From: Gammaproteobacteria bacterium
GTDB taxonomy: Bacteria > Pseudomonadota > Gammaproteobacteria > Pseudomonadales > Azotimanducaceae
Direction of reading: 5' to 3'
Assembly: GCA_026705345.1 (NCBI GenBank)
Contig: JAPPAV010000120.1
Span: 13,748 to 77,747, forward strand
DNA: 64,000 nt
The translations under genes were made by a program, and so were the position numbers. Positions 12,613-53,672 of this stretch are shown piece after piece (the first letter of the stretch is position 1; every line of letters starts with the position of its first letter). Below the pieces are notes generated by a model. The model saw nothing but the letters and a program-made list of their open reading frames with translations, did no database searches and was not told where the DNA came from.

Positions 12613-12699
12613 GCCGAGGTGGTGAAATTGGTAGACACGCTAGCTTCAGGTGCTAGTGGGGGTAACCCCGTGGAGGTTCAAGTCCTCTCCTCGGCACCA
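12613..12699 (+). tRNA. tRNA-Leu (anticodon CAG), class II with long variable arm, CCA encoded
   Basis: The sequence is GCCGAGGTGGTGAAATTGGTAGACACGCTAGCTTCAGGTGCTAGTGGGGGTAACCCCGTGGAGGTTCAAGTCCTCTCCTCGGCACCA. The acceptor is GCCGAGG/CCTCGGC, the anticodon stem is CTAGC/GCTAG with loop TTCAGGT, and the T-arm is GGAGG-TTCAAGT-CCTCT. Confidence 0.9.
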
Positions 12700-30531: not shown

Positions 30532-31641
30532 CTACCACTGGATCCAACGACCGTGCGCACTGCGTAGCACGGACAGCAACCTGGTTGAACGGCCACCTTC
30601 CAGGCGGGTGGCCTCAAGGCGCTCGCCCTCCGACGAGATGTGGAATAGTGGACGCGATTGGGCTGCCGCACGCAGCAGACCTGCGAAGGACTCCCGCGCC
30701 TGCACGGGAAATTGGTTCAGCGCGTGACAATGGAACACGCAGAGCGCGGCATCGGCCGGGGCTTCGGCGACGAGGTCCGGCAGCCGCTCGAGCGCGTCCC
30801 CCGCCTCCACGCGGGGCGGTTGCTGCAGCCACACCTCCCGCGCGGACGCGAGCAGTGCGGTTCGATCCGCATGCTCGGGCCAGATCAATGCTTCGAGCCA
30901 TCGGTACTGCTCGTCGTCCGCGAGATCGATCGGATTGAGATCCACGCCCGCGGAAAAGGACACCTCGGGGAAGCTCGACGGCAACGGCGGCATCTCGCCC
31001 CGGCTTTCGCACGCGATACGCACAGGGGATCGACCGGAACCGAAGGCGGCGCCGTTGGAGTACCGGTAGTCGAACCGGTTCCACAGCAGGTTCAGTCCCG
31101 CCCCGGCACCGATGTCGATCAGGGCGAGATCCCGACCCGTCTCCCGGGCGATGACGCAGAACGCCGGCATCAGGTGCGAACACCGGCCCACCTCGTTGGT
31201 CTGCACGTTCCGCGTTCGAACGAGTTCCGCGATCCGGTGCGCGTGCGAGCGGCAGAACGCGTCAAACTCGTACGCTAGGCCTCGAGCGGGCGCGGCACCC
31301 TCGGCGGCGCGTCGGTAGTGATGTCCAAGCGGCGCATCCGGGGTGTCGGCGACAAGACGTTTGACGGCGGCAAACAGCAGATTCGGGATCGGTTGTCCAA
31401 GTCGACATTCGCGGGCCAAGGCGAGCAAAGGCCCGCGAACGGCCACGTATCGGGAGAGCAGGGCGTAGGTCGGCGAATTGACGCTCATGCCAGAACCCCC
31501 CGGTGCGCATTCGAGGTCGGCAAACGCGTTGAACCGCGCCGCCAGCGCGGAGTCCGTGCGCCGTCGCCGGTTCAGGTCGACGTGATCGCGGCCCGGGATG
31601 CCGTCGTCCGTTGGGCCGCTAACGGGATTTTCGTTCGTCAA
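30532..31641 (-). CDS. DUF2332 family protein
   Basis: 369 aa. The motifs SPTYALLSRYVA, NLLFAAVKRL, VQTNEVGRC, IDIGAGAGLNLLWNRF and GVDLNPIDL resemble DUF2332 as I recall it. The TTG start overlaps the upstream stop (TTGA). Confidence 0.6.
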   Translation of the reverse strand: MTNENPVSGPTDDGIPGRDHVDLNRRRRTDSALAARFNAFADLECAPGGSGMSVNSPTYALLSRYVAVRGPLLALARECRLGQPIPNLLFAAVKRLVADTPDAPLGHHYRRAAEGAAPARGLAYEFDAFCRSHAHRIAELVRTRNVQTNEVGRCSHLMPAFCVIARETGRDLALIDIGAGAGLNLLWNRFDYRYSNGAAFGSGRSPVRIACESRGEMPPLPSSFPEVSFSAGVDLNPIDLADDEQYRWLEALIWPEHADRTALLASAREVWLQQPPRVEAGDALERLPDLVAEAPADAALCVFHCHALNQFPVQARESFAGLLRAAAQSRPLFHISSEGERLEATRLEGGRSTRLLSVLRSAHGRWIQW

Positions 31642-39734: not shown

Positions 39735-40673
39735 ATGGAAGTCACCCACGGCAATCTGCAAACCCTCGAACGCACGTACTCGACGGCGTTCCGCGAGGGC
39801 TACGACCAGGCGCCCCGCGACCACGAGTCGTTCGCCATGACGATCCCGAGCGGGTCGCTGACTCAGGAGTACGCTTGGCTCGGCCAGTTCCCGTCGCTCA
39901 ACGAGTGGTCGGGCGAGCGCATCATCCGGGGGATCAACCAGCAGGGGTTCGCGATCCGCAACCGCCTGTTCGAGTCGACCGTCGGCGTCCAGCGCACGAC
40001 CATCGAGGACGACCAGTACGGCGTGTACGGCCCGCTCATGCGGGAGATGGGGCGCGCCGCGTCCGACCACCAGGCGCAGATGGTCTACGGCCTGTTGGCT
40101 CAAGGGTTCACGCGGAAGGGGTACGACGGGCAGTACTTCTTCGACACCGACCATCCCGTCAGCAGCAGCGCGGGCGGCACGACGAAGCTCTACTCGAACG
40201 ACGGCGGCGGCAACAACGCCGAGGCGTGGTTCCTGGTCGACGCCTCGCGGATGGTCAAGCCGATCATCTTCCAGGAGCGGCTGCGGCCCGAGTTCACGAT
40301 GCTCAACCAGGCCGACGACGAGCACGTCTTCATGCGCGACGAGTACCTGTACGGCATCCGCGAGCGGAGCAACGTCGGGTTCGGATTCTGGCAGACCGCC
40401 TACGGTTCGAAAGACGAGCTAAACGACACGAACTACAAGACCGCGCGCGAAGCCATGCGGGGCGTCAAGGGCGACGAGGGCCGCCCTCTCGGCATCACGC
40501 CGACGCACCTGATCGTGCCGCCGACGATGGAGGAGAAGGGCCGGGAACTGCTGGTTTCGGAGCGGTCGGCGGACGGCTCCACCAACGTCTGGTTCGACAC
40601 GGCGACGCTTGTCGTGACGCCCTGGCTCTCGGCGGGAACCACGCTCGACGAGGGCGGCGGACTGGAATCGTGA
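39735..40673 (+). CDS. Mu-like major head subunit (gpT family)
   Basis: 312 aa. YAWLGQFPSLNEWSGERI...FESTVGVQRTTIEDDQYGVYGPLMREMGRAA...GYDGQYFFDTDHPV...NVGFGFWQ follows the conserved gpT pattern. Confidence 0.8.
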   Translation: MEVTHGNLQTLERTYSTAFREGYDQAPRDHESFAMTIPSGSLTQEYAWLGQFPSLNEWSGERIIRGINQQGFAIRNRLFESTVGVQRTTIEDDQYGVYGPLMREMGRAASDHQAQMVYGLLAQGFTRKGYDGQYFFDTDHPVSSSAGGTTKLYSNDGGGNNAEAWFLVDASRMVKPIIFQERLRPEFTMLNQADDEHVFMRDEYLYGIRERSNVGFGFWQTAYGSKDELNDTNYKTAREAMRGVKGDEGRPLGITPTHLIVPPTMEEKGRELLVSERSADGSTNVWFDTATLVVTPWLSAGTTLDEGGGLES

Positions 40674-41686
40674 CGCAGGCCGCAATCGCGCTCGGGCGCG
40701 CGTCGGAGCTACCGGCGGAGCCGCCCGAGTGGGTGGACCTGCTGCCGTCCGGCGCGGTCCTGGCGCGCGACGGGCGGCGCTGGACGGTCGCGGATCCCGA
40801 GGCGGTCGCCGCCGCGAGCCGCGAGCGGGCGGGCGCGACGGATCCCGCCATCGACTACGAGCACCAGTCGCACCGCACGGCGGGGGAGGCTCCCGCCGCC
40901 GGATGGATCAAGGAGATACGCGCCGAGGGCGGCGCGATCCGGGCGCGCGTCGAGTGGACCGCGCACGCGGCGGCGCGCATCCGCGCGCGCGAGTACCGCT
41001 ACCTGTCGCCGACGTTCCTGTTCGACGCCGAGACGGGCCGCGTCCGGGCCGTGACCGGCGCGGCGCTCACCAACACCCCTGCCCTGGACCTGCCCGCGCT
41101 GGCGCGGGCGCGAGACGGAGAACCCGAGATGAACGAGGCGCTAAAGGCCCTGCTGGCCGTGTTCGGCCTGGACGACAACGCGGCGGCGGATGCCGTCGAA
41201 AGCGCGGCGGCGGAGGCGCGCCCGGCGCTCGCCGCGTACCGCAAGCTCAAGGAGCGGGCCGACGCCGAAGGCACGACGGTCGACGAACTGGCGACCGCCG
41301 CCGCCCGGACCATTCCCGATCCGGCGCAGTACGTGCCGCGCGCGCAACTCGACACGGCGCTGGCGCGGGTGGTCGAACTGGAATCCACGACGACGGACGA
41401 GGCGCTCGCCGCCGCCGTCGGCGGCGCGATCCGCGACGGCAAGCTCCCGCCGTCGCAGCGGAAGTGGGCCACGGCCTACGCGCGGGAGAACCTCGACGGC
41501 TTCCGGGCGTTCGTCGCGGGCGCGCCGGTGCTGATCCGCCCCGGACGCGACGGGCGCGGCGCGCCGGGCGACGGCGGGAGGCCGTCGACGCACGGCCTGA
41601 CCGAAGCCGAACTGGCCGTCTGCCGCGCCGTGGGCGTGTCTCCCGAGAAGTATGCTGGCCTTCCGGGCCGTGGCGAAGCGGCCTAG
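40670..41686 (+). CDS. Mu-like prophage protein I (gpI head protease/scaffold family)
   Basis: Its GTG overlaps the gpT stop (GTGA). PEWVDLLPSGAVLARDGRRW...IDYEHQS...AAGWIKEIRAEGGAIRARVEWT...YRYLSPTF is the gpI signature. The Ala-rich coiled C-terminal half fits a scaffold. Confidence 0.75.
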   Translation: MTQAAIALGRASELPAEPPEWVDLLPSGAVLARDGRRWTVADPEAVAAASRERAGATDPAIDYEHQSHRTAGEAPAAGWIKEIRAEGGAIRARVEWTAHAAARIRAREYRYLSPTFLFDAETGRVRAVTGAALTNTPALDLPALARARDGEPEMNEALKALLAVFGLDDNAAADAVESAAAEARPALAAYRKLKERADAEGTTVDELATAAARTIPDPAQYVPRAQLDTALARVVELESTTTDEALAAAVGGAIRDGKLPPSQRKWATAYARENLDGFRAFVAGAPVLIRPGRDGRGAPGDGGRPSTHGLTEAELAVCRAVGVSPEKYAGLPGRGEAA

Positions 41687-41909
41687 CCGCCGCTACAGCG
41701 CCGCCGAGCGCGCGATGGTGCGGGCCGCGTTCGCGGAGGCCGCCCGGCTGCTCGGCGCGCCGCTGGACGACGACCAACTGGACGCGGCGGCGCGGATCGC
41801 GACCACCCCCGGAATCGACCGCGACACCGCCGCGCGCCGCCTGAACCGGGAGGCCCGCCCCCTGTTCGACGCCGTGAAGCGGATGCTCGCCAGGACGGGG
41901 GAGGCGTGA
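41652..41909 (+). CDS. Hypothetical small protein
   Basis: 85 aa from the ORF track. It overlaps the gpI 3' end by 35 nt, and an alternative start lies at 41715. Support is weak. Confidence 0.3.
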   Translation: MLAFRAVAKRPSRRYSAAERAMVRAAFAEAARLLGAPLDDDQLDAAARIATTPGIDRDTAARRLNREARPLFDAVKRMLARTGEA

Positions 41910-41910
41910 C

Positions 41911-44265
41911 GTGCCGCTAGGCCGGGGCGACCTCGAACTGGCGCTGCGGGTGCGCGCCGACCTGCGCCAGGCCGTCGGGGAACTGAACCGCCTGACGGCG
42001 GCGGTCGGCAAAACGGACGCGAACACGCGGCGCGGCGCGAAGGCGAACCGCGAACTGTCGCGCACCGTCCAGCGCGTGGCGCGCGACGCGCAACAGGCCG
42101 CCCGCTCGCTGGACCGCTTGGACCGCGAGCAGCGGCAGACCGCCGCCGGTGCCGAGCGCATGGAGCGCGCCGCGAGGGGCGCGGGATCGGCCTGGCGGCG
42201 GTTCCGCACCTTGGTCGCGGCGGGCGGCCTCGGCCTGCTGCTCCGCGAGGTGGTGCAGGCCGGGATCGAGTTCGAGGCGTTCGAGCAGAAGCTCCGCTTC
42301 GCGACGGGATCGGCGGCGGGCGCGACGGCGGAACTGGCGTTCCTGCGCGCCGAGGCCAACCGCCTCGGGATCGACTTCAACGTGCTCGCCGAGAGCTATT
42401 CGAACTTCGCCGCCGCGACGCGGGACACGCCGCTGGAACAACAGACGCGGGAGATATTCACGGCGTTCGCCGAGGGCGCGCGCGTGCTCCGCCTGACTCG
42501 CGAGCAGACGCGCGGCCTGTTCCTGGCGCTCGAGCAGATCGTGTCCAAGGGCGTGGTCAGCGCCGAGGAACTGCGCCAGCAGCTGGGCGAGCGGCTGCCG
42601 GGCGCGCTCCAGATCGCGGCGCGGGCGCTCGGCGTGACGACCGAGGAACTGAACCGGATGCTGGCCAGCGGCGAACTGCTGTCGACGGAGTTCCTGCCGC
42701 TGTTCGCGGCGGAGGCCCGGCGCACGTTCGGCGCGGACGTTCCCGAGGCCGCGAACAAGGCCGACGCGTCCATCGCGCGTTTAGGCAACGCGTTCCGCGA
42801 CCTCAAGGTCAGGATCGCCGAATCGGGCGTGCTGGACTTGACTGCGGCCTTGGCGGAGGCGGCCGCGGCGGGCATCCACGCGGCCAACGAGGCCGATCGG
42901 ACGCTAGGCCAGCGGCTCCAGGAGCGCGTGAGGATGGACCGACTGCGCGAACTGCTGGCCGAGCAGGCGGACCTGCGCGACCAGATCAACGCCGCGCTGG
43001 ACCGCGACGAGGCGCTGTACGCGCAGTACCTGCGCCAGCGGCTGGAGGGACTCGCGGACGATGTGCGCGACGCGGCCCGCGCGGTCCGGGCGGTGTCGGG
43101 CGCGCCGCCGCCGCTCGGGGAGATTCCGCCGGTTCCCGTCGGCGGCAGACGCCCCCGGCCCGAGCCGCCGCATCCCGAGCCAGCGCCGGTCGACCCGGAG
43201 TTTCTCGCGCGGCTGGAGAAGGAGAACCGCGCGATCCTCGGCATCTACGACCGCCGCCGCGCGAGCGCCGCCGAAACGCGCGACACGCTGCTCGGCTACC
43301 TGTCGGAGCAGACGGAGGGCTACGCGGAACACGTCGCCGCCGTGCAGACGTGGTACGACACGGTGCTCAAGGGCATCGCGGAGGACGAGGCCGCAGACGC
43401 CGAACGGCGCGCCGAGGCGAAGGCGGCGGCGCGCCAGCGCGAGATCGAGGCCGACGAACGGGCCGCCGCGAGCGCGGAGGACGCCGCACGGCGCGCGAGG
43501 GAGGCGGCGGCGCGCGAGGCCGAGCTAGCGTACCGCTCGGCGCGGGACGCCCTAACGGGCGCGCACAGGGCGCTAGGCGACATCGCCGAGCTTGCGACGG
43601 ACGCCGGGGCGGAGGCCGAGAGCGCCATCGTGAACGCGTTCCACGGCATTGAGGACGCGTTCGAGCGGCTGCGGCGGACGGGCAAGGCGAGCTTCGGCGA
43701 CCTGGTCGACTCCGTGTTGGCGGACGTGACGCGGCTGCTGCTGCGGCTCCAGGTGACCGGCCCGTTGGCGCTGTTCCTGCAATCGCTGCTAGGCGGCGCG
43801 GGGCAGGTCGGGCTGCCGCTCGGCGACGGCTCCCGGTTCGCCGGGTTCGCCCACGGCGGCGGGATCGCTGGATCGCTCCGCACCGGGCGGCGGCTGGACG
43901 CCGCCGCGTTCGCCTTCGCGCCGCGACTGCACAGGGGAGGCTCAGCGTCCGTATTCCGGCCAGCAGTCGCTCGTGGGATTCCGGGCCTGCGCGACGACGA
44001 GATTCCGACCATCCTGGAGCGCGGCGAGGGCGTGTTCACGCGCGAGCAGATGGCGGCGCTCGGCGGCCTCGCGGGCGGGCCGCGCGAGGTGGTGGTTCAG
44101 ATACGCAACGAGAGCAGCCAAGAGATCGAGGCGAGCGACGCGACGGCGGAGTTCGACGGGATGCGGCGGATGGTCGTCGGCGTCGTGTTGAACGACCTGC
44201 AACACGGCGGGGACATATCCCGCGCCCTGCACGGTGGGTTCGGCCTGCGGCGGAGGCCGATTTGA
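41911..44265 (+). CDS. Phage tail tape measure protein
   Basis: 784 aa with a GTG start. The conserved tape-measure core is TREQTRGLFLALEQIVSKGVVSAEELRQQLGERLPGALQIAARALGVTTEELNRMLASGELLSTEFLPLFA. Long coiled-coil Ala/Arg/Glu-rich segments follow. Confidence 0.8.
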   Translation: MPLGRGDLELALRVRADLRQAVGELNRLTAAVGKTDANTRRGAKANRELSRTVQRVARDAQQAARSLDRLDREQRQTAAGAERMERAARGAGSAWRRFRTLVAAGGLGLLLREVVQAGIEFEAFEQKLRFATGSAAGATAELAFLRAEANRLGIDFNVLAESYSNFAAATRDTPLEQQTREIFTAFAEGARVLRLTREQTRGLFLALEQIVSKGVVSAEELRQQLGERLPGALQIAARALGVTTEELNRMLASGELLSTEFLPLFAAEARRTFGADVPEAANKADASIARLGNAFRDLKVRIAESGVLDLTAALAEAAAAGIHAANEADRTLGQRLQERVRMDRLRELLAEQADLRDQINAALDRDEALYAQYLRQRLEGLADDVRDAARAVRAVSGAPPPLGEIPPVPVGGRRPRPEPPHPEPAPVDPEFLARLEKENRAILGIYDRRRASAAETRDTLLGYLSEQTEGYAEHVAAVQTWYDTVLKGIAEDEAADAERRAEAKAAARQREIEADERAAASAEDAARRAREAAAREAELAYRSARDALTGAHRALGDIAELATDAGAEAESAIVNAFHGIEDAFERLRRTGKASFGDLVDSVLADVTRLLLRLQVTGPLALFLQSLLGGAGQVGLPLGDGSRFAGFAHGGGIAGSLRTGRRLDAAAFAFAPRLHRGGSASVFRPAVARGIPGLRDDEIPTILERGEGVFTREQMAALGGLAGGPREVVVQIRNESSQEIEASDATAEFDGMRRMVVGVVLNDLQHGGDISRALHGGFGLRRRPI

Positions 44266-45881: not shown

Positions 45882-47153
45882 TCAAGGACGTTGCCGCCGT
45901 GTCGGCTCTCGAATCACGCCGTCGGCAAACAAGCGGTTGATTGCCGGTTCGGACAGGCCGGCCTCGGTGAGAATCTCCCGCGTGTGCTTGCCAAGTGCCG
46001 GCGACGCCGACGTCGTCGACAACGGCGTTTCGCTGAACCTGACGGGGGGCGCGACGACGGTCATGCCGCCGACCTCTTCGTGTTCCAAGCGTGTCAGGTA
46101 GCCGTTCTCCCAAACGTGGGGATCCTCGAAGATCTCGTCCTTCAACCGGTATTCGCCGGCCGGCAGGCCCGCCGCGTCGAATTTCGCGAGCCAGCGGGCC
46201 GTAGTCTCCTCCGCCAATCGGGCGGCTGACCGGCGGCGCATCCGACGTGTGTGGGCGGCGATGTCGTCGATCTTGAAGTTTGGATCCGTCAACGCCGGGT
46301 CTTCGATGCCGAGCAGCTTGGCGACTCTCACTTGGAGTCCGCGGCCACCGGCGGCGATGACGATGTAGCCGTCCTTGGTCTCGAAGAAACCGTAGTAGGG
46401 CGGGTTGATCGACGGCTTCAGGGTCTCGCGTTCACCTAGCACGTCGGTCAGGGTTCGACCGTCTGCGAATGCCGTCTTCAAGTGCTCGACGAAGCCCTTG
46501 CGCCAACCGTCCACGGCGTCGACGTGGTGGATCGAGTTGTTCTGGATCACAAGGGCGGCCTGGAGAAGCGACACATCGAGCTTCTGTCCCACCCCCGTTC
46601 GCTCTCGGTTGTAGAGGGCGGTGGCGATGCCCCAGGCCATCAACAGTGCCGCCGTGTAGTCCACGAACGGATCGGCCGGCGGTCTCGGGCCCGATTCCGT
46701 CATCGGCGTCATGCCCGTGTATGCCTGCAGGAGAATGTCCATGCCTGGCTTGCCTGCCAATGGACCCTTTGGGCCGAATGCGGTGTTCTGGGCGTAGACG
46801 ATGCGCGGGTTGGCGCGGGAGACTGTCTCGTAGTCGAGGCCCAGTTTCTCGCCTTGTCCCGGTCGGAAGTTGACGATCGTGACATCGGCCTTGTGCAGCA
46901 AGCCCTGCACGATCCGTGTGATGCGAGGGTCCGAAAGCTGCAGCGCGATGCTGCGCTTGCCGCGGTTCTTGTTGAGGTATTGGCGCGCCTCGGTGGGCGA
47001 GAAGCGGGTGCCGTTGCGTCTCGCGTCGTCGCCAACCAGTGGTTCGACCTTGATCACGTCGGCACCACCATCGGCGAGCAGTTGGCCACAGTACGGGGCG
47101 GCGATGAAACGGCCGAGTTCGATGACCTTCAAGCCGGTGTATGGACCCTGCAC
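45882..47153 (-). CDS. Family III CoA-transferase (CaiB/BaiF/Frc family)
   Basis: The start was chosen at GTG 47153, which is preceded by AAAGGAG, and the long 5' extension of track ORF 45882..47603 was rejected. LKVIELGRFIAAPYCGQLLADGGADVIKVEP and NKNRGKRSIALQL are family III signatures. Confidence 0.85.
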   Translation of the reverse strand: MQGPYTGLKVIELGRFIAAPYCGQLLADGGADVIKVEPLVGDDARRNGTRFSPTEARQYLNKNRGKRSIALQLSDPRITRIVQGLLHKADVTIVNFRPGQGEKLGLDYETVSRANPRIVYAQNTAFGPKGPLAGKPGMDILLQAYTGMTPMTESGPRPPADPFVDYTAALLMAWGIATALYNRERTGVGQKLDVSLLQAALVIQNNSIHHVDAVDGWRKGFVEHLKTAFADGRTLTDVLGERETLKPSINPPYYGFFETKDGYIVIAAGGRGLQVRVAKLLGIEDPALTDPNFKIDDIAAHTRRMRRRSAARLAEETTARWLAKFDAAGLPAGEYRLKDEIFEDPHVWENGYLTRLEHEEVGGMTVVAPPVRFSETPLSTTSASPALGKHTREILTEAGLSEPAINRLFADGVIREPTRRQRP

Positions 47154-47182: not shown

Positions 47183-47207
47183 GGGACGCCACAAGGGCGT
47201 CCCCTAC
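47183..47207. repeat. REP-type hairpin
   Basis: The sequence is GGGACGCCACAAGGGCGTCCCCTAC. The CTAC is the TAG stop of the LLM gene. Confidence 0.7.
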
Positions 47208-48040
47208 GGGAGGTTCTCGGCGTGCCTGTCCAATAGCGGCAACACTACGTCCGCACCTGCGGACGGCACCGACAGGATGGCGCGGTCGATGCCGGCTTCG
47301 CGGTAGAGGTCGAGCAAGGCGGCGTCTGACGGCGCGCCGAACACGTTGATGGTCAAGGTGGCCATGTCGCGTTCCGCGGCATCGGCCACGGCGCGCAGTC
47401 GAGCGACGCCTTCGTGGGGATCGAATCCGCCCCGGGCGCGTGGCAGCCAGCCGTCGCCGTAGTCGACCACGCGGCGCAGGGTGTGGATCGACTCGCCGCC
47501 GATCAGGATCGGCGGATTGGGCTTCTGCACCGGTTTCGGGTACGACCACACCGGGTCGAAGTCGGTGAACTCGCCGTGGAACTCGGGTTCCTCCTCGGCC
47601 CACAAGGTCTTCATCGCCTTGGCGCGTTCGCTCATCACCCGGAAACGCGTGGCGAACTCGGTGCCGTGGTTCTCCATCTCCTCCGCGTTCCAGCCCGCGC
47701 CGATGCCGACGTCCACGCGTCCGTTGGAGAGCAGGTCGAGACTGGCGATCTCCTTGGCGGTGACGATGGGGTCGTGTTCCGGCAGAAGGCAGATGCCGGT
47801 GCCGACACGCAGCTTCTCGGTTGCTGCGGCCGCTGCCGTCAGGGCGACGAAGGGGTCCAGCGTATGCCAGTACTCCTTGGGCAGATCCGATCCGCCCGGC
47901 CAGGGGCTCCGGCGGCTTGTCGGAATGTGGGTGTGCTCCGGGACGAACAGCGACTCGAAGCCTCGGGCTTCCACTTCCCGGGCGAGGTCGTCGATGCGTA
48001 TGGCGTAGTCGGTGGCGAACATGCAGGTGCCGATTTTCAC
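47204..48040 (-). CDS. Luciferase-like monooxygenase (LLM) class oxidoreductase, F420-dependent Rv2161c-like subgroup
   Basis: 278 aa. MKIGTCMFATDYAI...GFESLFVPEHTHIP...LDPFVALTAAAAATEKLRVGTGICLLPEHDPI...GRVDVGIGAGWNAEEME...PPILIGGES...GDGWLP matches the LLM pattern. Confidence 0.8.
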   Translation of the reverse strand: MKIGTCMFATDYAIRIDDLAREVEARGFESLFVPEHTHIPTSRRSPWPGGSDLPKEYWHTLDPFVALTAAAAATEKLRVGTGICLLPEHDPIVTAKEIASLDLLSNGRVDVGIGAGWNAEEMENHGTEFATRFRVMSERAKAMKTLWAEEEPEFHGEFTDFDPVWSYPKPVQKPNPPILIGGESIHTLRRVVDYGDGWLPRARGGFDPHEGVARLRAVADAAERDMATLTINVFGAPSDAALLDLYREAGIDRAILSVPSAGADVVLPLLDRHAENLP

Positions 48041-48127: not shown

Positions 48128-48940
48128 TCAATGTTCCATCACTGCGCCGCCGTCCTGGTTGATGGACTGTCCGTGGATCCACGACGCGGCCTCGGTGCAG
48201 AGATAGGCGACGAACTCGCCGACCTCGTCGTCGCTACCCCAGCGGTTGACGGGATCGCCGGGACGTTTGCGCTCCGGACGGTCGTCGGGCCTCACGTCGT
48301 CCATGCGGGACGTGTCCACCGCGCCCGGGCACACGCAATTCACGTTGACGCCCCGTGGTCCGAACTCACGCGCCATGGACTGGGTCATGCCGATCATGGC
48401 GAAATTGGCGGCGTTGTAGGCCAGCGTGTTGGCGCTGCCGCGCTTGCCGGCGATGGACGCGATGTTGACGATCTTGCCGCCTTCGTCCTGGCGGTAGATG
48501 TGCCGAATCACGGCCTGTGTACACAGGAACGTGCCGCGGACCTTGACGTCGACCACGCGCTGGAACAGGTCGGGATCCAGCGTTTCGACAGTCGTTCGAT
48601 CCGCGCCCCGGGCGATGGCCGCGTTGTTGATGAGAATGTCGATGCGGCCGAGTTCGCCGACAATCCGCTCCACAGCCGCGTTGATCTGCTCCAGGTTGGC
48701 GACATCGAACACCAGCGGCAACGCCCGCCGTCCGCATTCGCGGATCTGATCGGCGACACTCTCCACATCGCGCCACCCGAGGGCCTTTTCGTCGTCCGGA
48801 AACGTCGCCGGGTCGCGGCCCGTGCCGCTGATCGCCACGTCCGCGCCGAGACGTGCCAGCGCGACAGCAGCCGCCCGGCCGATGCCGCGCAGTCGTCCTG
48901 CGCCTGTAACCAGGGCTACCTTGCCGTCGAGTTCCGCCAC
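48128..48940 (-). CDS. SDR family oxidoreductase
   Basis: 270 aa counted from the 3' end of track ORF 48128..49738, with a GTG start 2 nt after the upstream stop and a GGAGG upstream. It has TGAGRLRGIG (TGxxxGxG), NNAA, and the catalytic YNAANFA (YxxxN rather than YxxxK). Confidence 0.8.
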   Translation of the reverse strand: MAELDGKVALVTGAGRLRGIGRAAAVALARLGADVAISGTGRDPATFPDDEKALGWRDVESVADQIRECGRRALPLVFDVANLEQINAAVERIVGELGRIDILINNAAIARGADRTTVETLDPDLFQRVVDVKVRGTFLCTQAVIRHIYRQDEGGKIVNIASIAGKRGSANTLAYNAANFAMIGMTQSMAREFGPRGVNVNCVCPGAVDTSRMDDVRPDDRPERKRPGDPVNRWGSDDEVGEFVAYLCTEAASWIHGQSINQDGGAVMEH

Positions 48941-48942
48941 GA

Positions 48943-50130
48943 TCAGGCCTCCGTTCCAACGACGCCGGCTTCGACGAGACCGTCGATCTCCGCGCCTGCG
49001 AGGCCAAGATCGGACGCGAGCACCTCGCGGGAATGTGCGCCCAGGAGCGGCGCCGCGCTGATCGGCACCGTACTCTCGGACATCCGCGCCGGCCAACCGA
49101 GCAGCTTGATCGGTCCCGCGGCCGGATGGTCGAGTTCGTGCACGAAGCCACGCTCGACGAGATGCGGGTTGCGGTACAGGTCGCTGGTGTCGAGAACCGC
49201 ACTGGCCGGAACGCCGCCCTCCGCGAGCTCGCGCATGGCAGCGTACTTGTCGCGCTGACTGGTCCACTTGGCAATTTCCGCCACGATCGCATCGCGATTG
49301 CGGTATCGGTCCCGGGGATCCTGGTAGCGCGGGTCGTTGAACAGGTCCTCGCGACCGACCACCCGGCAAAGCGCCTCCCACATCCGACCCGTCACCGCCA
49401 TGATGTAGACGTAGTCGTTGGGGCCATCGCCCCTGCAGGGGTATAGCGTCATGTTCGGCGTCGCGCCATTGCCCGAGCGCCCCACTGCCCGCTCGCCGTA
49501 GCGGCCGCTGGCGGTGGCCGTCCGCAGGTAGTAGGTCATCGCCTCCTGCATGGAAATCTCGATGAGCTGGCCCTTGCCGGTGTTCAGTCGTTGCACGTAG
49601 GCGGACACGATGGCGAGCGCCATCTGCACCCCCGTACCGGCATCGCCGGTCGTCGGTCCCGGTCGCATGGGCGGGCCTTCCGCCTCGCCGGTGATCGAGA
49701 ACGCGCCCGCCGCCGATTGCGCCACCATGTCGAAGCACTTGTAGTCCGACCAGGGTCCGGAGGTGCCGAAGCCCTTGATGCGACCGTAGATGATGTCCGG
49801 CTTGACGGCCTTGAAAGCGTCGTAGTCGATGCCAAGCTTCTCGACGACGCCCGGCCCGTAGTTCTCCACGAAGACGTCGTAGTTGGGCAGCATGTCGAAC
49901 AGCAGTTGCCTCCCGTCTGGCTTCGACAGATCGATCACGACGCTGCGTTTGTTGGAGTTCCAGACCATGAAGTACTCGCTGCTGCCGCCGATACCGCGAC
50001 CGGGATCACCGTGGCCGGGACGCTCCACCTTGACCACGTCGGCCCCGAGCCAGGCCAAAGCCTGGGTGCAGGACGTGCCTGCCTCGTACTGCGTCATGTC
50101 CAGAACGCGCAATCCGTCGAGTGCTGGCAT
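48943..50130 (-). CDS. Family III CoA-transferase, formyl-CoA transferase-like
   Basis: 395 aa. LRVLDMTQYEAGTSCTQALAWLGADVVKVERPG and NSNKRSVVIDL are present, and the overall length and order resemble Frc/YfdW. Confidence 0.85.
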   Translation of the reverse strand: MPALDGLRVLDMTQYEAGTSCTQALAWLGADVVKVERPGHGDPGRGIGGSSEYFMVWNSNKRSVVIDLSKPDGRQLLFDMLPNYDVFVENYGPGVVEKLGIDYDAFKAVKPDIIYGRIKGFGTSGPWSDYKCFDMVAQSAAGAFSITGEAEGPPMRPGPTTGDAGTGVQMALAIVSAYVQRLNTGKGQLIEISMQEAMTYYLRTATASGRYGERAVGRSGNGATPNMTLYPCRGDGPNDYVYIMAVTGRMWEALCRVVGREDLFNDPRYQDPRDRYRNRDAIVAEIAKWTSQRDKYAAMRELAEGGVPASAVLDTSDLYRNPHLVERGFVHELDHPAAGPIKLLGWPARMSESTVPISAAPLLGAHSREVLASDLGLAGAEIDGLVEAGVVGTEA

Positions 50131-50161: not shown

Positions 50162-50638
50162 CTAAAGGTGGTTCGCGAGATCGTCCGCGATCTGGGCCGG
50201 CGTTACCCGGGGTTCGTAGCGGGCCACTACCTGCCCCTCGCCGTCGACGAGGAATTTGGTGAAGTTCCAGGCAATGTCGGCGTTGCCATCGGATCTCGGC
50301 TGCTCGGATTTCAGGAACTCGTAGAGGTCGCAGGCATCGTCGCCGTTGACCTCGATCTTGGCGAACATTTGGAAGTTGGCGTCGTACGTCGAGCGCGCGA
50401 ACTCGAGGATTTCCTCGTTCGACCCGGGTTCCTGGCGACCGAACTGGTTGCAGGGAAATCCGAGCACCTTGACGGCACCTTCTTCTTCAAGGGTACGCAG
50501 ACCTGCGTACTGACGCGTCATCCCTCACTGACTAGCCAGGTTGACCACGAGGCACGCGGCGCCCTTGTACTTCTCGAAGCCGAGCGGCTCCCCCGTGATC
50601 GTGGCCATGGTGAACTCGTGGAATCGCACCACTTCCAT
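50162..50638 (-). CDS. Glutathione peroxidase, predicted selenoprotein (in-frame UGA at 50525-50527 read as Sec)
   Basis: Track ORF 50162..50521 is only the C-terminal two-thirds (LGFPCNQFGRQEPG, WNFTKFLV). The same frame stays open upstream of one TGA and reads MEVVRFHEFTMATITGEPLGFEKYKGAACLVVNLASQ-U-GMTRQYAGL. This is the GPx active-site motif VNxASxUGxT, with TGA at the Cys/Sec position. Confidence 0.8.
50493..50510 (-). promoter_or_regulatory. Candidate bacterial SECIS apical stem-loop
   Basis: The RNA reads GUACGCAGGUCUGCGUAC, a 7-bp stem with a GGUC loop that starts 14 nt after the UGA. The core GCAGGUCUGC is identical to the apical SelB-binding hairpin of E. coli fdhF as I recall it. 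Confidence 0.65.
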
Positions 50639-50697
50639 CCCCTCTGCTAGCATCGGTAGCCGGTCGATTATTGCGAAGTGGAGAGGGTTAGCAAGTC

Positions 50698-51760
50698 ATG
50701 TCCGCCACCGAACTCACCCTCGAGGAGAAACGACGCTTCCTCGCCGACGGTTTCATCGTCATCCGCGAAGCGGTACCCCGGGAACTGACCTTCCGGGCCC
50801 GCCGCGCCGTTAATATGCATGCGGCGCGGGAAGGCGTTCGTCGGCCCTACCACGATCTCGCCGGCGACAGCCCGCTTCCCGACCTCGTCAACAAGAGCCG
50901 CCTCGGCGAGATCATGCGCAACACCATGGGGCCGTACGATCCGCCGCAGAGCGCCTTCGCCGCGATTCTCTATCCCCAAGCCGAGACCACGGCGCCGAAC
51001 TACGGCTGGCAACCCCACGTCGACGGAATGTGGTACTCGCCAGCCCTGCCGTCCGCGGACGAGGTCGATTCCTGGGAAGCGCCGCGAACCCACCATTTCG
51101 GCAGGGGGGACGCCACCGAGATGGGCGCCAACAAGACACCGTTCTTCCAGGATCCCGAATGCAACTTGGCACTCGGCAGCTTCACGGCCTTCGTCGGCGT
51201 AGCCCTCAACGACCAGACCGAGTTCGGACGCGGCAACCTGTGCCTCCTGAAAGGCGCCCACGAGGAGGTCGAAGCGTTTTTTCGTATGCAGCGCGACGCC
51301 GGCGGGAACGTCGGTCCCGAGGGTCCCGGCTGGCCGCGGCTGGCGCCGCGCCAGGACGGCGGCGTGACGCTCGACCCCCATGCCACAGCCGGTGCGCGAC
51401 AAATTCGTCGCCGACGCGGAGGTGGTCGACGGCGTCGCTTGGCCGGAGCCGACTGCGATCCTGCTCGACGAGGGCGACGCCGTGATCGCGCTGCACGCCT
51501 GTCCCCACGGGGGCAGCGTCAACGCCGGTGCCGATCCCCGCATGAACATCTACTTCCGGCTACGACACGAACGACCCGGCGGCGCGACGGTCCTAGGCGA
51601 CAGCGACCACCCGGACCGGGGCTGGGAAGGCCAGTTCCTCGACTATGCCGACGACTACGATCCGTGGCGGGTCGCGGTCGACGCCATGTGCGATCACTGG
51701 AGCGAATGGGACGGCATGGCGGACGTGGTGGCCCAAGCTCGCGGCGACGCCGAGGAGTAG
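50698..51760 (+). pseudogene. PhyH-like Fe(II)/2OG dioxygenase, frameshifted paralog of 58208..59302
   Basis: The 50698 frame matches the paralog up to GPEGPGWPRL... and then turns Arg-rich nonsense. The homologous C-terminal half (VRDKFVAD...LHACPHGG...RMNIYFRLRH...DHPDRGWEGQFLDY...WSEWDGM) continues in the 51380..51760 frame. The switch is at a CCCCC run at 51375-51379. Confidence 0.7.
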
Positions 51761-51774
51761 TGCTGACTGGCCGG

Positions 51775-52188
51775 CTACTCTTCGCCTTCGCGAACCGGGA
51801 TTACCTCTACGCCGTCGAAGCGCGCAGCGACACGTCGATCGAACGTATACAGGGCAGCATCGGCTCGTAGGCAGGCCGCGATGATCATCAGGTCAGAGAA
51901 GTCCGCGGCCCCGGTGTGATAGTGCGTTGCTGACCAAAGGACGTCGCGCGCCTCCTCCAATACGATCTCATCCGTCACGTGCATTTCCAGCAACGTCCGC
52001 TCTATCTGGTCGCGCGAAAATCCGTAGGACCGTTCGAGCACTCGTACGAGTTCGACAAGTACCTCACGACAGACGTAGGCGGGGTTCTCCGCCGTCAGCG
52101 ACTCCGCGACATTCCGCACGGCTTCGGACTGCTCCGCGTGATCCGCGACTAGGTAACGCACCAAGGCGGCGGTATCGAGAGCGATCAT
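51775..52188 (-). CDS. vapC: PIN-domain toxin VapC
   Basis: 137 aa. It has the MIALDTAALVRYL N-terminal acidic residue, a later D in FSDLMIIA, and a 4-nt overlap with an upstream AbrB-type antitoxin gene. Confidence 0.8.
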   Translation of the reverse strand: MIALDTAALVRYLVADHAEQSEAVRNVAESLTAENPAYVCREVLVELVRVLERSYGFSRDQIERTLLEMHVTDEIVLEEARDVLWSATHYHTGAADFSDLMIIAACLRADAALYTFDRRVAARFDGVEVIPVREGEE

Positions 52189-52415
52189 GTGCGTCCACCA
52201 TGCTCGACGGCCCGCTCCATGTCGGATAAGCCGATGGGTGGCCCCTCATACTTCAACGTCCCGAACAGCCGACCGATGGGTCGCACACGGAAAATCCGCA
52301 CTTCGAGCGGCAGAATCACGTAGCGAACGCGGTCCCCGGGCGACACCCCCAATGCTTCACGGACCGGTTTGGGGAGTGTTGTCTGCCCTTTCGATGTAAG
52401 AACCGACTCAATCAT
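52185..52415 (-). CDS. vapB: AbrB/MazE/SpoVT family antitoxin VapB
   Basis: 76 aa. LTSKGQTTLPKPVREALGVSPGDRVRY is the SpoVT/AbrB looped-hinge-helix motif. Confidence 0.8.
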   Translation of the reverse strand: MIESVLTSKGQTTLPKPVREALGVSPGDRVRYVILPLEVRIFRVRPIGRLFGTLKYEGPPIGLSDMERAVEHGGRT

Positions 52416-52520: not shown

Positions 52521-53672
52521 ATGAAGTACCCTTCGGGGCCAGCGAACACGAGCCAGACAACCATGAGCAATGGTCTCGCGATCAGTCTCTTCCACGGCAA
52601 CTGGTTTCTGCGCAACGAACCCAAGCTGGCTCTGAGCGACAAGGAACGGGCGTTCATCGTCGCGGCACTCGGTCAAACGCCGAAGCGCTGGGATGGCGAA
52701 CCCGACGGGTCGAGCATGGTCGAGATGCTTTCCGATGCGCCCGACCTTCTCGACAGAATCGGAATTCGGTTGCTGTCGGTGGCCATCGGTATGCGCGGCT
52801 GCGGCCCTACGGTCGCCCTGCTGCTCGAACGCGGCGTCGAGCTGGATATCGACAAGTCCGCCTACAATGTCCTCCACGAAGCGGCCTGGGCCGGGGCGAC
52901 GGACACCCTCGAGGCGGTGTTCGAATCGGGCGTGTCGGACGCAACGCCGGTTTCCGTGAAGAAACCGCATACCGGCTGGCCCGACAACGTGTCGCTCATG
53001 TACTGGGTAGCCTGGGGTGGCTATCCCGATCTCGCGAGACTGCTGACCGCCCACGGCGCCAGCATCCACCATGAACTCCCGATCAAGGGCAATGGCGAAC
53101 GCGGCACCACCTCATTGCACGAAGCGGTTGCGCCGGGCCCATGGAAGGACGACAGCGCCCTGCGCTCGAACCGGGGAAAACGCGAGGTGGCCCAAGTCCT
53201 CATCGATGACGGAGCCAACTACGATGCCTATGCGGCGTGTGGACTCGGCGATGTCGACCAGTTGCAAGCGCTCATCGATGCCGATGTGGAGGTCTCGAGG
53301 GTTGCCGATGACTATGGAATGACACCCCTGCACTGGGCGGCGCGGGCGGGCGCCGTCGATTGTGCGGACCTCCTCCTAGCGCACGGTGCCGATGTCGACG
53401 CGCCGAACAAGGCACGCCGGGCACCGCTGCAACTGGCGGCGGAAGCCGATCAAGCCGAGGTCATCCGCCAGCTCGCCCGGCACGGTGCCGACCTCGACAC
53501 CCAGGACCGCAAGGGGCGCACGCCGCTGCACCGGGCAACCTACGAGGGCCAAGTTGCGGCTGCCGAGGCCCTGCTCGAGGTTGGCGCCGACCCCACGGTG
53601 CTGAACAAGCGCGGCAAGAACGCTTTCGAGATCGCCCGCAAGGACGCCAAGTACTTCAAGGACCGCGCGTAG
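52521..53672 (+). CDS. Ankyrin repeat protein
   Basis: 383 aa. It has several 33-aa ANK units (GMTPLHWAARAGAVDCADLLLAHGADVDAPN, RRAPLQLAAEADQAEVIRQLARHGADLDTQD, GRTPLHRATYEGQVAAAEALLEVGADPTVLN). Confidence 0.85.
   Translation: MKYPSGPANTSQTTMSNGLAISLFHGNWFLRNEPKLALSDKERAFIVAALGQTPKRWDGEPDGSSMVEMLSDAPDLLDRIGIRLLSVAIGMRGCGPTVALLLERGVELDIDKSAYNVLHEAAWAGATDTLEAVFESGVSDATPVSVKKPHTGWPDNVSLMYWVAWGGYPDLARLLTAHGASIHHELPIKGNGERGTTSLHEAVAPGPWKDDSALRSNRGKREVAQVLIDDGANYDAYAACGLGDVDQLQALIDADVEVSRVADDYGMTPLHWAARAGAVDCADLLLAHGADVDAPNKARRAPLQLAAEADQAEVIRQLARHGADLDTQDRKGRTPLHRATYEGQVAAAEALLEVGADPTVLNKRGKNAFEIARKDAKYFKDRA

Follow-up and report, generated by a model that had tools for sequence, protein, structure and literature searches.

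A predicted selenocysteine-containing glutathione peroxidase gene with a hairpin downstream of its in-frame UGA in a sponge-associated gammaproteobacterial lineage

Bacterial glutathione peroxidase (GPX)-like selenoproteins with a UxxT motif are on record from the Sargasso Sea, from comparative genomics and from Treponema denticola (PMC1088965, PMC1794560). Members of this family, such as T. denticola WP_010957027.1 and the Sargasso Sea sequences, belong to PF00255, have their peroxidatic selenocysteine (Sec, U) in the UxxT motif and carry a bacterial-type Sec insertion sequence (SECIS) in the coding region after the UGA, with a G in its loop (PMC1088965, PMC1794560, PMC13188914). Here we describe a locus that is likened to this family by that description, found in a 64,000-nucleotide (nt) stretch of contig JAPPAV010000120.1 (assembly GCA_026705345.1, Gammaproteobacteria bacterium), the whole of which is referred to below as the window. 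A glutathione peroxidase (GPx) frame in the window is interrupted by a single TGA, giving the motif U-G-M-T, and is followed by a short RNA hairpin. The host, one of the sponge and marine Pseudomonadales with metagenome-assembled genomes (MAGs) resembling Ca. Azotimanducaceae, differs from those of the T. denticola and Sargasso Sea family, and the sub-clade is set apart from GPX4 and other Sec-GPx by a 4-residue deletion after the active-site helix. Bacterial Sec-GPx has been known since 2005, and the locus adds a sponge-associated gammaproteobacterial lineage to it; a literature search turned up nothing on the selenoproteins that sponge symbionts make. We put the probability that the locus is an intact Sec-containing GPx gene of the GPX4-like monomeric type, its UGA being read via the hairpin, at roughly 93%.

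Two other groups of enzymes are close to the window protein. Mammalian GPX4 has the Sec/Gln/Trp/Asn tetrad in common with it, lacks as it does a Cys 18 residues past the Cys of the FPC motif, and has the same short, monomer-type architecture without the oligomerisation loop. GPX4 depends on a eukaryotic SECIS in the 3' untranslated region, on SBP2 and on eEFSec, whereas the putative SECIS of the window gene lies within the coding region. Escherichia coli BtuE and yeast Gpx3/Orp1, which are atypical 2-Cys, thioredoxin-dependent peroxidases, share the fold, the tetrad, the Q-Y-x-G-L motif and FPCNQF with the window protein, and Cys-type bacterial and fungal GPx-like peroxidases are 45-60% identical to it. 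The BtuE/Gpx3 type combines an active-site Cys with a resolving Cys; in the window protein these positions would be occupied by Sec and Ala86.

The GPx frame runs on the minus strand from 50653 to 50162, has 163 codons with the TGA at 50527-50525 as its sole internal stop (context VVNLASQ-*-GMTRQYAGLRTL) and terminates at a TAG (50164-50162). Prodigal-type gene callers cut it into an open reading frame (ORF) of 37 or 42 amino acids (aa) and another of 119 aa. Translation and caller output thus both bear out the preliminary description of the locus, which had proposed a frame open across one TGA into the 119-aa ORF and split by conventional ORF calling. Protein searches were made with Cys in place of the internal stop. 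The frame matched the Pfam GSHPx profile (PF00255) with E=1.7e-36 and 124.5 bits (cut-off 27) over profile positions 1-108 of 108, and the match covers residues 11-115, spanning the TGA; solved GPX4 structures were the best structural-database matches (E=1.6e-40). The score against the NCBIfam BtuE equivalog (143.8 bits) lay below its cut-off of 270, as did that for Gpx7, and the protein is therefore a generic GPx that belongs to neither named subfamily. The TGA aligned with the Sec/Cys of the GPX4 sequence ASQCGKT, and the catalytic tetrad is complete, with U43 in NLASQ-U-G, Q74 in GRQEP, and W129 and N130 in WNF. Composition at third codon positions was coding-like on both flanks of the TGA, with a GC fraction of 0.89 upstream and 0.78 downstream. 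Of 20 called genes in the neighbourhood, 10 end in an ordinary TGA stop, among them the CoA-transferases supported by Pfam, a short-chain dehydrogenase/reductase (SDR) and a phage tape-measure gene, so the genetic code is not reassigned. In a screen of the entire window for in-frame TGA codons with coding-like composition on both sides, only the GPx gene and three gene-boundary or antisense artefacts were recovered.

Homologues were collected by a scan with one genome per species, which gave 492 relatives; the best 80 of these were kept, and the genome counts in this text refer to them. TGA occupies the catalytic codon at 27 genome loci (L001-L028 except L026) and TGC or TGT at 52, so that 27 of 79 related genome loci have the TGA form. 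Alignment with Cys-containing GPx homologues (28 TGA against 52 TGC/TGT) and with GPX4 confirmed the UGA/Cys column, in agreement with the catalytic position first assigned to the TGA from the motif. The 27 reference genomes with TGA are spread over four phyla and comprise sponge and marine Pseudomonadales and Ca. Azotimanducaceae MAGs, one Myxococcota, one Planctomycetota and three Acidimicrobiia. Complete MAG chromosomes with the TGA form are OZ220680.1, OZ241908.1, OY282519.1, OZ242340.1 and OZ220737.1. The TGA form is present at all 19 loci whose identity with the window protein is 71% or more. A lack of conservation in the N-terminal codons had been named beforehand as a sign of a true stop or a pseudogene lesion; the 30-35 codons that precede the TGA read as conserved GPx sequence at each of the TGA genome loci.

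Metagenomes were scanned with the pattern TGA-GGN-NTN-ACN-NNN-CAR-TAY plus downstream CNQF codons, in which the 3' arm of the hairpin was left unspecified. At least 120 further contigs with TGA at the GPx codon were obtained, and among the matches listed nearly all have a long open GPx frame (at least 30 codons) upstream. The earlier statement that Sec-GPx is uncommon in bacteria therefore fits cultured genomes, where it is rare, and does not fit marine and sponge metagenomes, where these contigs make it common. Pooled figures from genomes and metagenomes (135 or 145 sequences) given below are likewise counts among the matches listed. As a separate observation, eleven of the metagenome TGA loci (L089, L090, L109, L119, L129, L133, L169, L183, L190, L194 and L196) continue differently after Q-Y (QYKGLE, QYADLQ, QYTALQ and others) and have no hairpin in this register; they presumably rely on another SECIS, and a few could be of eukaryotic origin.

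Downstream of the TGA, after 14 nt, the mRNA can form the hairpin GUACGCA-GGUC-UGCGUAC, as the preliminary description had proposed, and the element is conserved and co-varies among relatives. Its stem is a perfect 7 base pairs (bp) and its sequence encodes Q-Y-A-G-L-R-T. The hairpin is part of the minimum-free-energy fold and has -8.5 kcal/mol when folded alone. It has what defines a bacterial SECIS (PMC1088965), namely a stem-loop right after the UGA and a small apical loop containing G. In the SECIS of E. coli K-12 fdhF, read straight from NC_000913.3 as UGA CACGGCCCAUCGGUU GCAGGUCUGC ACC, all 10 nt of the apex GCAGGUCUGC are the same as in the window, with the loop GGUC closed by GCA/UGC, and both elements lie immediately downstream of a UGA within the reading frame. 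The lower stem is not conserved. By chance the 10-nt core would turn up 0.17 times per window, and the 18-nt hairpin, of which the window holds a single copy, 0.04 times even if 3 mismatches are tolerated. Of the TGA trinucleotides in the window (65.5% GC), approximately 4.8% are followed at a suitable distance by some 7-bp hairpin with a G in its loop. A second exact GCAGGTCTGC at 30675-30684 (minus strand) was considered as a SECIS and rejected as a chance match, since the 369-aa ORF that contains it (codons F-A-G-L-L) runs on without interruption and no UGA is close by.

Across the hairpin, synonymous sites are frozen in TGA forms and free to vary in Cys forms. The residues Q-Y-A-G-L-R are encoded by CAG TAC GCA GGT CTG CGT in 26-28 of 28 TGA sequences, and GCA and GGT are otherwise seldom chosen for these Ala and Gly residues; at the same residues of the 52 Cys forms the counts are 2 of 25 for GCA and 2 of 45 for GGT, with Q or E where the TGA forms have R. 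Codons flanking the hairpin vary freely in the TGA forms, with four Thr and three Gly codons in use, for example, and the frozen bases run from the third base of the Gln codon to the second base of the Thr codon, which are the exact limits of the stem. Synonymous sites of the spacer also vary freely, while its length is constant in 135 of 135 distinct sequences. The same 135 sequences, genome and metagenome TGA forms pooled and each comprising the TGA plus 45 nt, made up alignment A1, in which 92.9% of cells in the helix are paired and 14 are compensatory. These include a change from C-G to U-A (TAC to TAT with CGT to CAT, Arg to His) and one from G-C to A-U (GCA to ACA with CGT to TGT, Ala to Thr and Arg to Cys); in 42 sequences a U-A pair has become a wobble U-G, with Thr replaced by Ala in the protein. 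A notable aspect of these substitutions is that the amino acids appear to change so as to preserve the stem pairs. In 500 shuffles the observed paired fraction, compensatory-cell count and covariation score were never reached. Judged from these alignments, the RNA structure, and not the protein sequence alone, is under selection.

The fate of the hairpin in close relatives with a Cys codon points the same way. The protein database contains four full-length Cys forms (P0001-P0004), 71-76% identical to the window protein, that keep QYAGLR and have no resolving Cys; the GPx gene lies at about 1001-1480 in each of the corresponding loci (L207, L208, L209/L210 and L211). The 4.12-Mb contig ctg150444c is an example of a close Cys-form genome. 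In P0004 (L207) the codons read GCG GGG CTG CGC GCG and in P0001 (L208) GCG GGG TTG CGG AGC, and the hairpin is lost in both; P0002 (L209, L210), with ACA GGC CTG CGT, has an uncompensated change that weakens the stem, and P0003 (L211) has the hairpin intact. It has thus decayed in three of four lineages. The four Cys forms look like recent reversions from Sec to Cys inside the clade. With TGC or TGT at the codon, the hairpin is released from constraint, and its function would therefore be tied to the UGA.

The Sec forms also differ from the Cys forms elsewhere in the protein. Counting 18 residues on from the FPC Cys leads to the site of the resolving Cys82 of yeast Gpx3, which is Cys in 51 of 52 Cys forms; in 145 Sec forms it is Ala (116), Val (18) or another residue, with Cys in 5. 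WNF is present in all 52 Cys forms and in 137 of the 145 Sec forms, the others being without it or truncated. The absence of the resolving Cys in Sec forms points to a GPX4-like enzyme with one redox-active selenol, rather than a 2-Cys, thioredoxin-dependent one. A further Cys, Cys108 (codon 50330-50332, minus strand), stands 40 residues after the FPC Cys in the motif NGDDAC; this column is Cys in about half of the Sec forms listed and in about 4 of 52 Cys forms, and the thiol of Cys108 might resolve the selenenic acid instead.

Several observations weigh against an intact Sec-GPx gene read via this hairpin. Searches of the 64-kb window and of 1.2 Mb of retrieved loci by tblastn with E. coli SelA, SelB and SelD found no selA, selB or selD, the only match being a generic GTPase, and ARAGORN found no tRNA-Sec gene (selC) in the same sequences; we nevertheless infer that the Sec machinery is present in this organism. 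In Gammaproteobacteria selC may lie within selB (PMC13188914). Bacterial Sec-GPx is described in a 2026 review as 'predicted with high confidence' and not experimentally verified (PMC13188914). Covariation in the helix is modest, both sides having changed in 3 of 7 pairs, and a control in which the helix was slid by -2 gave a similar covariation score. A 66-nt region around the hairpin was no stabler than its shuffles (z=0.12; 65% GC), and folding energy was dropped as evidence for the element, the significance of which lies in its position and in the comparison with relatives. Rfam searches at gathering and permissive thresholds yielded no SECIS family at the hairpin; a model that would detect such an element seems to be missing from Rfam, and this negative is uninformative. 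The likeness to fdhF is also incomplete. The fdhF element folds with a bulged U, which the window hairpin does not have below its GCA/UGC helix, and the loop of the window hairpin, at nt 25-28 when the U of UGA is counted as the first, is 3 nt or one codon further from the UGA than that of fdhF, at nt 22-25. Both the bulged U and the distance from UGA to loop are important for E. coli SelB. The SECIS that had been proposed as fdhF-like is so in part, by its identical apical core; the hairpin is predicted to act like the fdhF SECIS without belonging fully to the E. coli type.

These points have to be set against what other explanations of the TGA would entail. A nonsense mutation from TGC or TGT that killed a Cys-type GPx would need one substitution from TGC, the hairpin could then be a coincidence at the chance level given above, and sel genes missing from the window and the retrieved loci would cause no difficulty. 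However, the same TGA is present in at least 147 independent sequences from four phyla, both halves of the gene show the marks of purifying selection, the hairpin bases are frozen and all closest genome relatives carry TGA, and a pseudogene, hardly credible in our judgement, is effectively refuted by the comparative data. That the TGA arose by sequencing or assembly error, the window being a metagenome scaffold, has a probability close to nil and is already refuted, as the identical protein with the same split occurs on contigs from three separate samples and the TGA in those other sequences.

If the TGA were instead a true stop, the products would be a 42-aa peptide and a separate, truncated 119-aa GPx starting at ATG 50521, which is the split that Prodigal-type callers yield, and this ATG does lie two codons past the TGA. 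The 119-aa product, however, would have neither the catalytic residue nor the beta-alpha unit with which the thioredoxin fold begins; ATG 50521 is not conserved, half of the TGA forms having Leu or Phe there, and has no Shine-Dalgarno motif ahead of it, and the 35 codons upstream are conserved as GPx sequence. We consider termination here highly improbable. A subtler alternative accepts the recoding and questions the residue. In some bacteria Cys is delivered by a SelB-like factor with a tRNA-Sec-like tRNA(Cys). The evidence from the hairpin bears on SECIS-type recoding and not on the identity of what is inserted, and Cys forms exist in the same clade. On the other side, the hairpin apex is the same as that of a bona fide Sec SECIS, Cys relatives simply use TGC or TGT and let the hairpin decay, which suggests that the UGA form gains something beyond Cys, and that UGA forms have lost the resolving Cys is in keeping with selenium chemistry. 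Insertion of Cys or another residue is accordingly rated very unlikely.

On the reading as an intact Sec-GPx gene, the hairpin, with its loop GGUC and GCA/UGC closing pairs, would be bound during translation by SelB·GTP·Sec-tRNA(Sec), and SelB, competing with RF2, would bring Sec to the UGA, giving a full-length protein of about 17 kDa. The hairpin would be written inside the coding sequence for Q-Y-A-G-L-R-T, of which Q-Y-A-G-L is conserved in Cys-type GPx too; the Sec forms would add R-T, which finishes the 3' arm of the stem, and freeze the synonymous positions. In the enzyme, the selenenic acid formed at Sec43 would most likely be reduced by an external thiol (glutathione), because the tetrad comes without a resolving Cys at the canonical position, and less likely through an internal disulfide and thioredoxin.

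Table 1. Coordinates of the GPx gene, its recoding elements and its neighbours in the window.
Feature	Position	Strand	Basis or remark
Sec-GPx coding sequence (predicted)	50162..50653	-	Translation, Pfam GSHPx, GPX4 structure matches
UGA codon, putative Sec43 (numbered from ATG 50653), peroxidatic position	50525..50527	-	Alignment to GPX4, homologue codons
UGA-hairpin spacer, 14 nt, codons G-M-T-R and part of Q	50511..50524	-	Relatives
Putative SECIS apical hairpin GUACGCA-GGUC-UGCGUAC, 18 nt	50493..50510	-	Folding, conservation, covariation, fdhF identity
Hairpin 5' arm GUACGCA	50510-50504	-	
Hairpin loop GGUC	50503-50500	-	
Hairpin 3' arm UGCGUAC	50499-50493	-	
Catalytic Gln codon Q74 in GRQEP	50432..50434	-	GPX4 alignment; motif in all homologues
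Ala86 codon at resolving-Cys position, 18 residues past Cys of FPC motif	50396..50398	-	Alignment
Catalytic Trp-Asn codons W129, N130 in WNF	50264..50269	-	GPX4 alignment
Shine-Dalgarno-like GAGGGG	50639..50644	-	6 nt upstream of GTG 50632; putative role
Sigma-70-like promoter match TTGCTA-16-AATAAT	50667..50694	-	Consensus match only; 1 found, 0.1 expected
CoA-transferase family III, operon gene 1	48943..50130	-	Pfam E=4.6e-107; 31 nt after GPx stop
SDR, operon gene 2	48128..48940	-	Ordinary TGA stop
Luciferase-like monooxygenase, operon gene 3	47204..48040	-	
Second CoA-transferase family III, operon gene 4	45882..47153	-	
Divergent neighbour	50698..51870	+	94% conserved in L002 over first 227 residues

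The start of the gene was initially placed at ATG 50638. The frame is indeed open from that codon; its use as the start is uncertain, with rivals on either side, and the length of the frame is 163 codons from ATG 50653, 158 from ATG 50638 and 156 from GTG 50632. GTG 50632 is most likely the start, because it lies 6 nt past the GAGGGG motif (Table 1) and aligns with the start of the nearest homologues (MARFHEF...), with ATG 50638 and ATG 50653 less likely.

The GPx gene was also said to head a minus-strand operon with two CoA-transferases, an SDR and a luciferase-like monooxygenase, and these genes are in place (Table 1), with a divergent gene upstream; the order GPx/CoA-transferase/SDR is kept in L001-L014. 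The divergent plus-strand ORF matches nothing in Pfam or NCBIfam and, judging by its conservation, is probably the real gene. A Prodigal minus-strand ORF (50668-51381, 237 aa) overlapping it was rejected as the upstream gene, being 78% conserved in L002 against 94% for the plus-strand ORF. The promoter match falls in the divergent intergenic region of 45-60 bp, and from the divergent neighbour and this match together the GPx gene would be first in its transcription unit. As the first cistron, the GPx could plausibly clear hydroperoxides that arise from a catabolic pathway of CoA-transferases, SDR and flavin-type monooxygenase.

Other features of the surroundings are a Mu-like prophage segment at approximately 40160-44265, about 1.6 kb past the end of the operon, with a tape-measure gene (41911-44265, plus strand; PF20155, PF09718), a Mu-like protease and major-head (gpT) genes, and a type II toxin-antitoxin pair (51775-52415, minus strand) in which the genes for a 76-aa antitoxin of MazE/PrlF type and a 137-aa PIN-domain toxin overlap by 4 nt. 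A tRNA-Leu(CAG) at 12613-12699 (plus strand) is the only tRNA in the window. At 52521-53672 (plus strand) a 383-aa ORF encodes an ankyrin-repeat protein, for which a length of 369 aa is called on ENA metagenome scaffold ROBB21-1_SAMN13943209_METAG-scaffold_316, the 77.9-kb source of the window. Ankyrin-repeat proteins are often reported in sponge symbionts, and this one fits the sponge-MAG origin of the closest relatives.

The finding would not surprise a specialist and overturns no current understanding; its chief value is a correction of annotation. Gene callers leave a catalytically dead 119-aa 'GPx', and dozens of such 119-aa clusters are present in public protein databases, so that the selenoproteomes of marine bacteria and sponge symbionts are undercounted. 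A more far-reaching idea, which we regard as unlikely though worth stating, is that the Sec-GPx gene and its hairpin form a portable unit that moved among at least four phyla and could be read by a distant SelB, perhaps that of E. coli, because the apex is identical to the SelB-binding site of E. coli fdhF. If this were true, the unit would be a natural, directly expressible bacterial selenium peroxidase and a clean case of a SECIS that evolved inside the pre-existing protein motif Q-Y-A-G-L.

For the family, the locus would be an example of dual coding, in which a SECIS lies within a conserved peptide motif and relaxes on reversion from UGA to Cys, and in which the use of Sec is coupled to loss of the resolving Cys. 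For the organism, the gene would imply that Pseudomonadales-type symbionts use selenium and that a high-efficiency peroxide-removing enzyme heads the CoA-transferase/monooxygenase operon.

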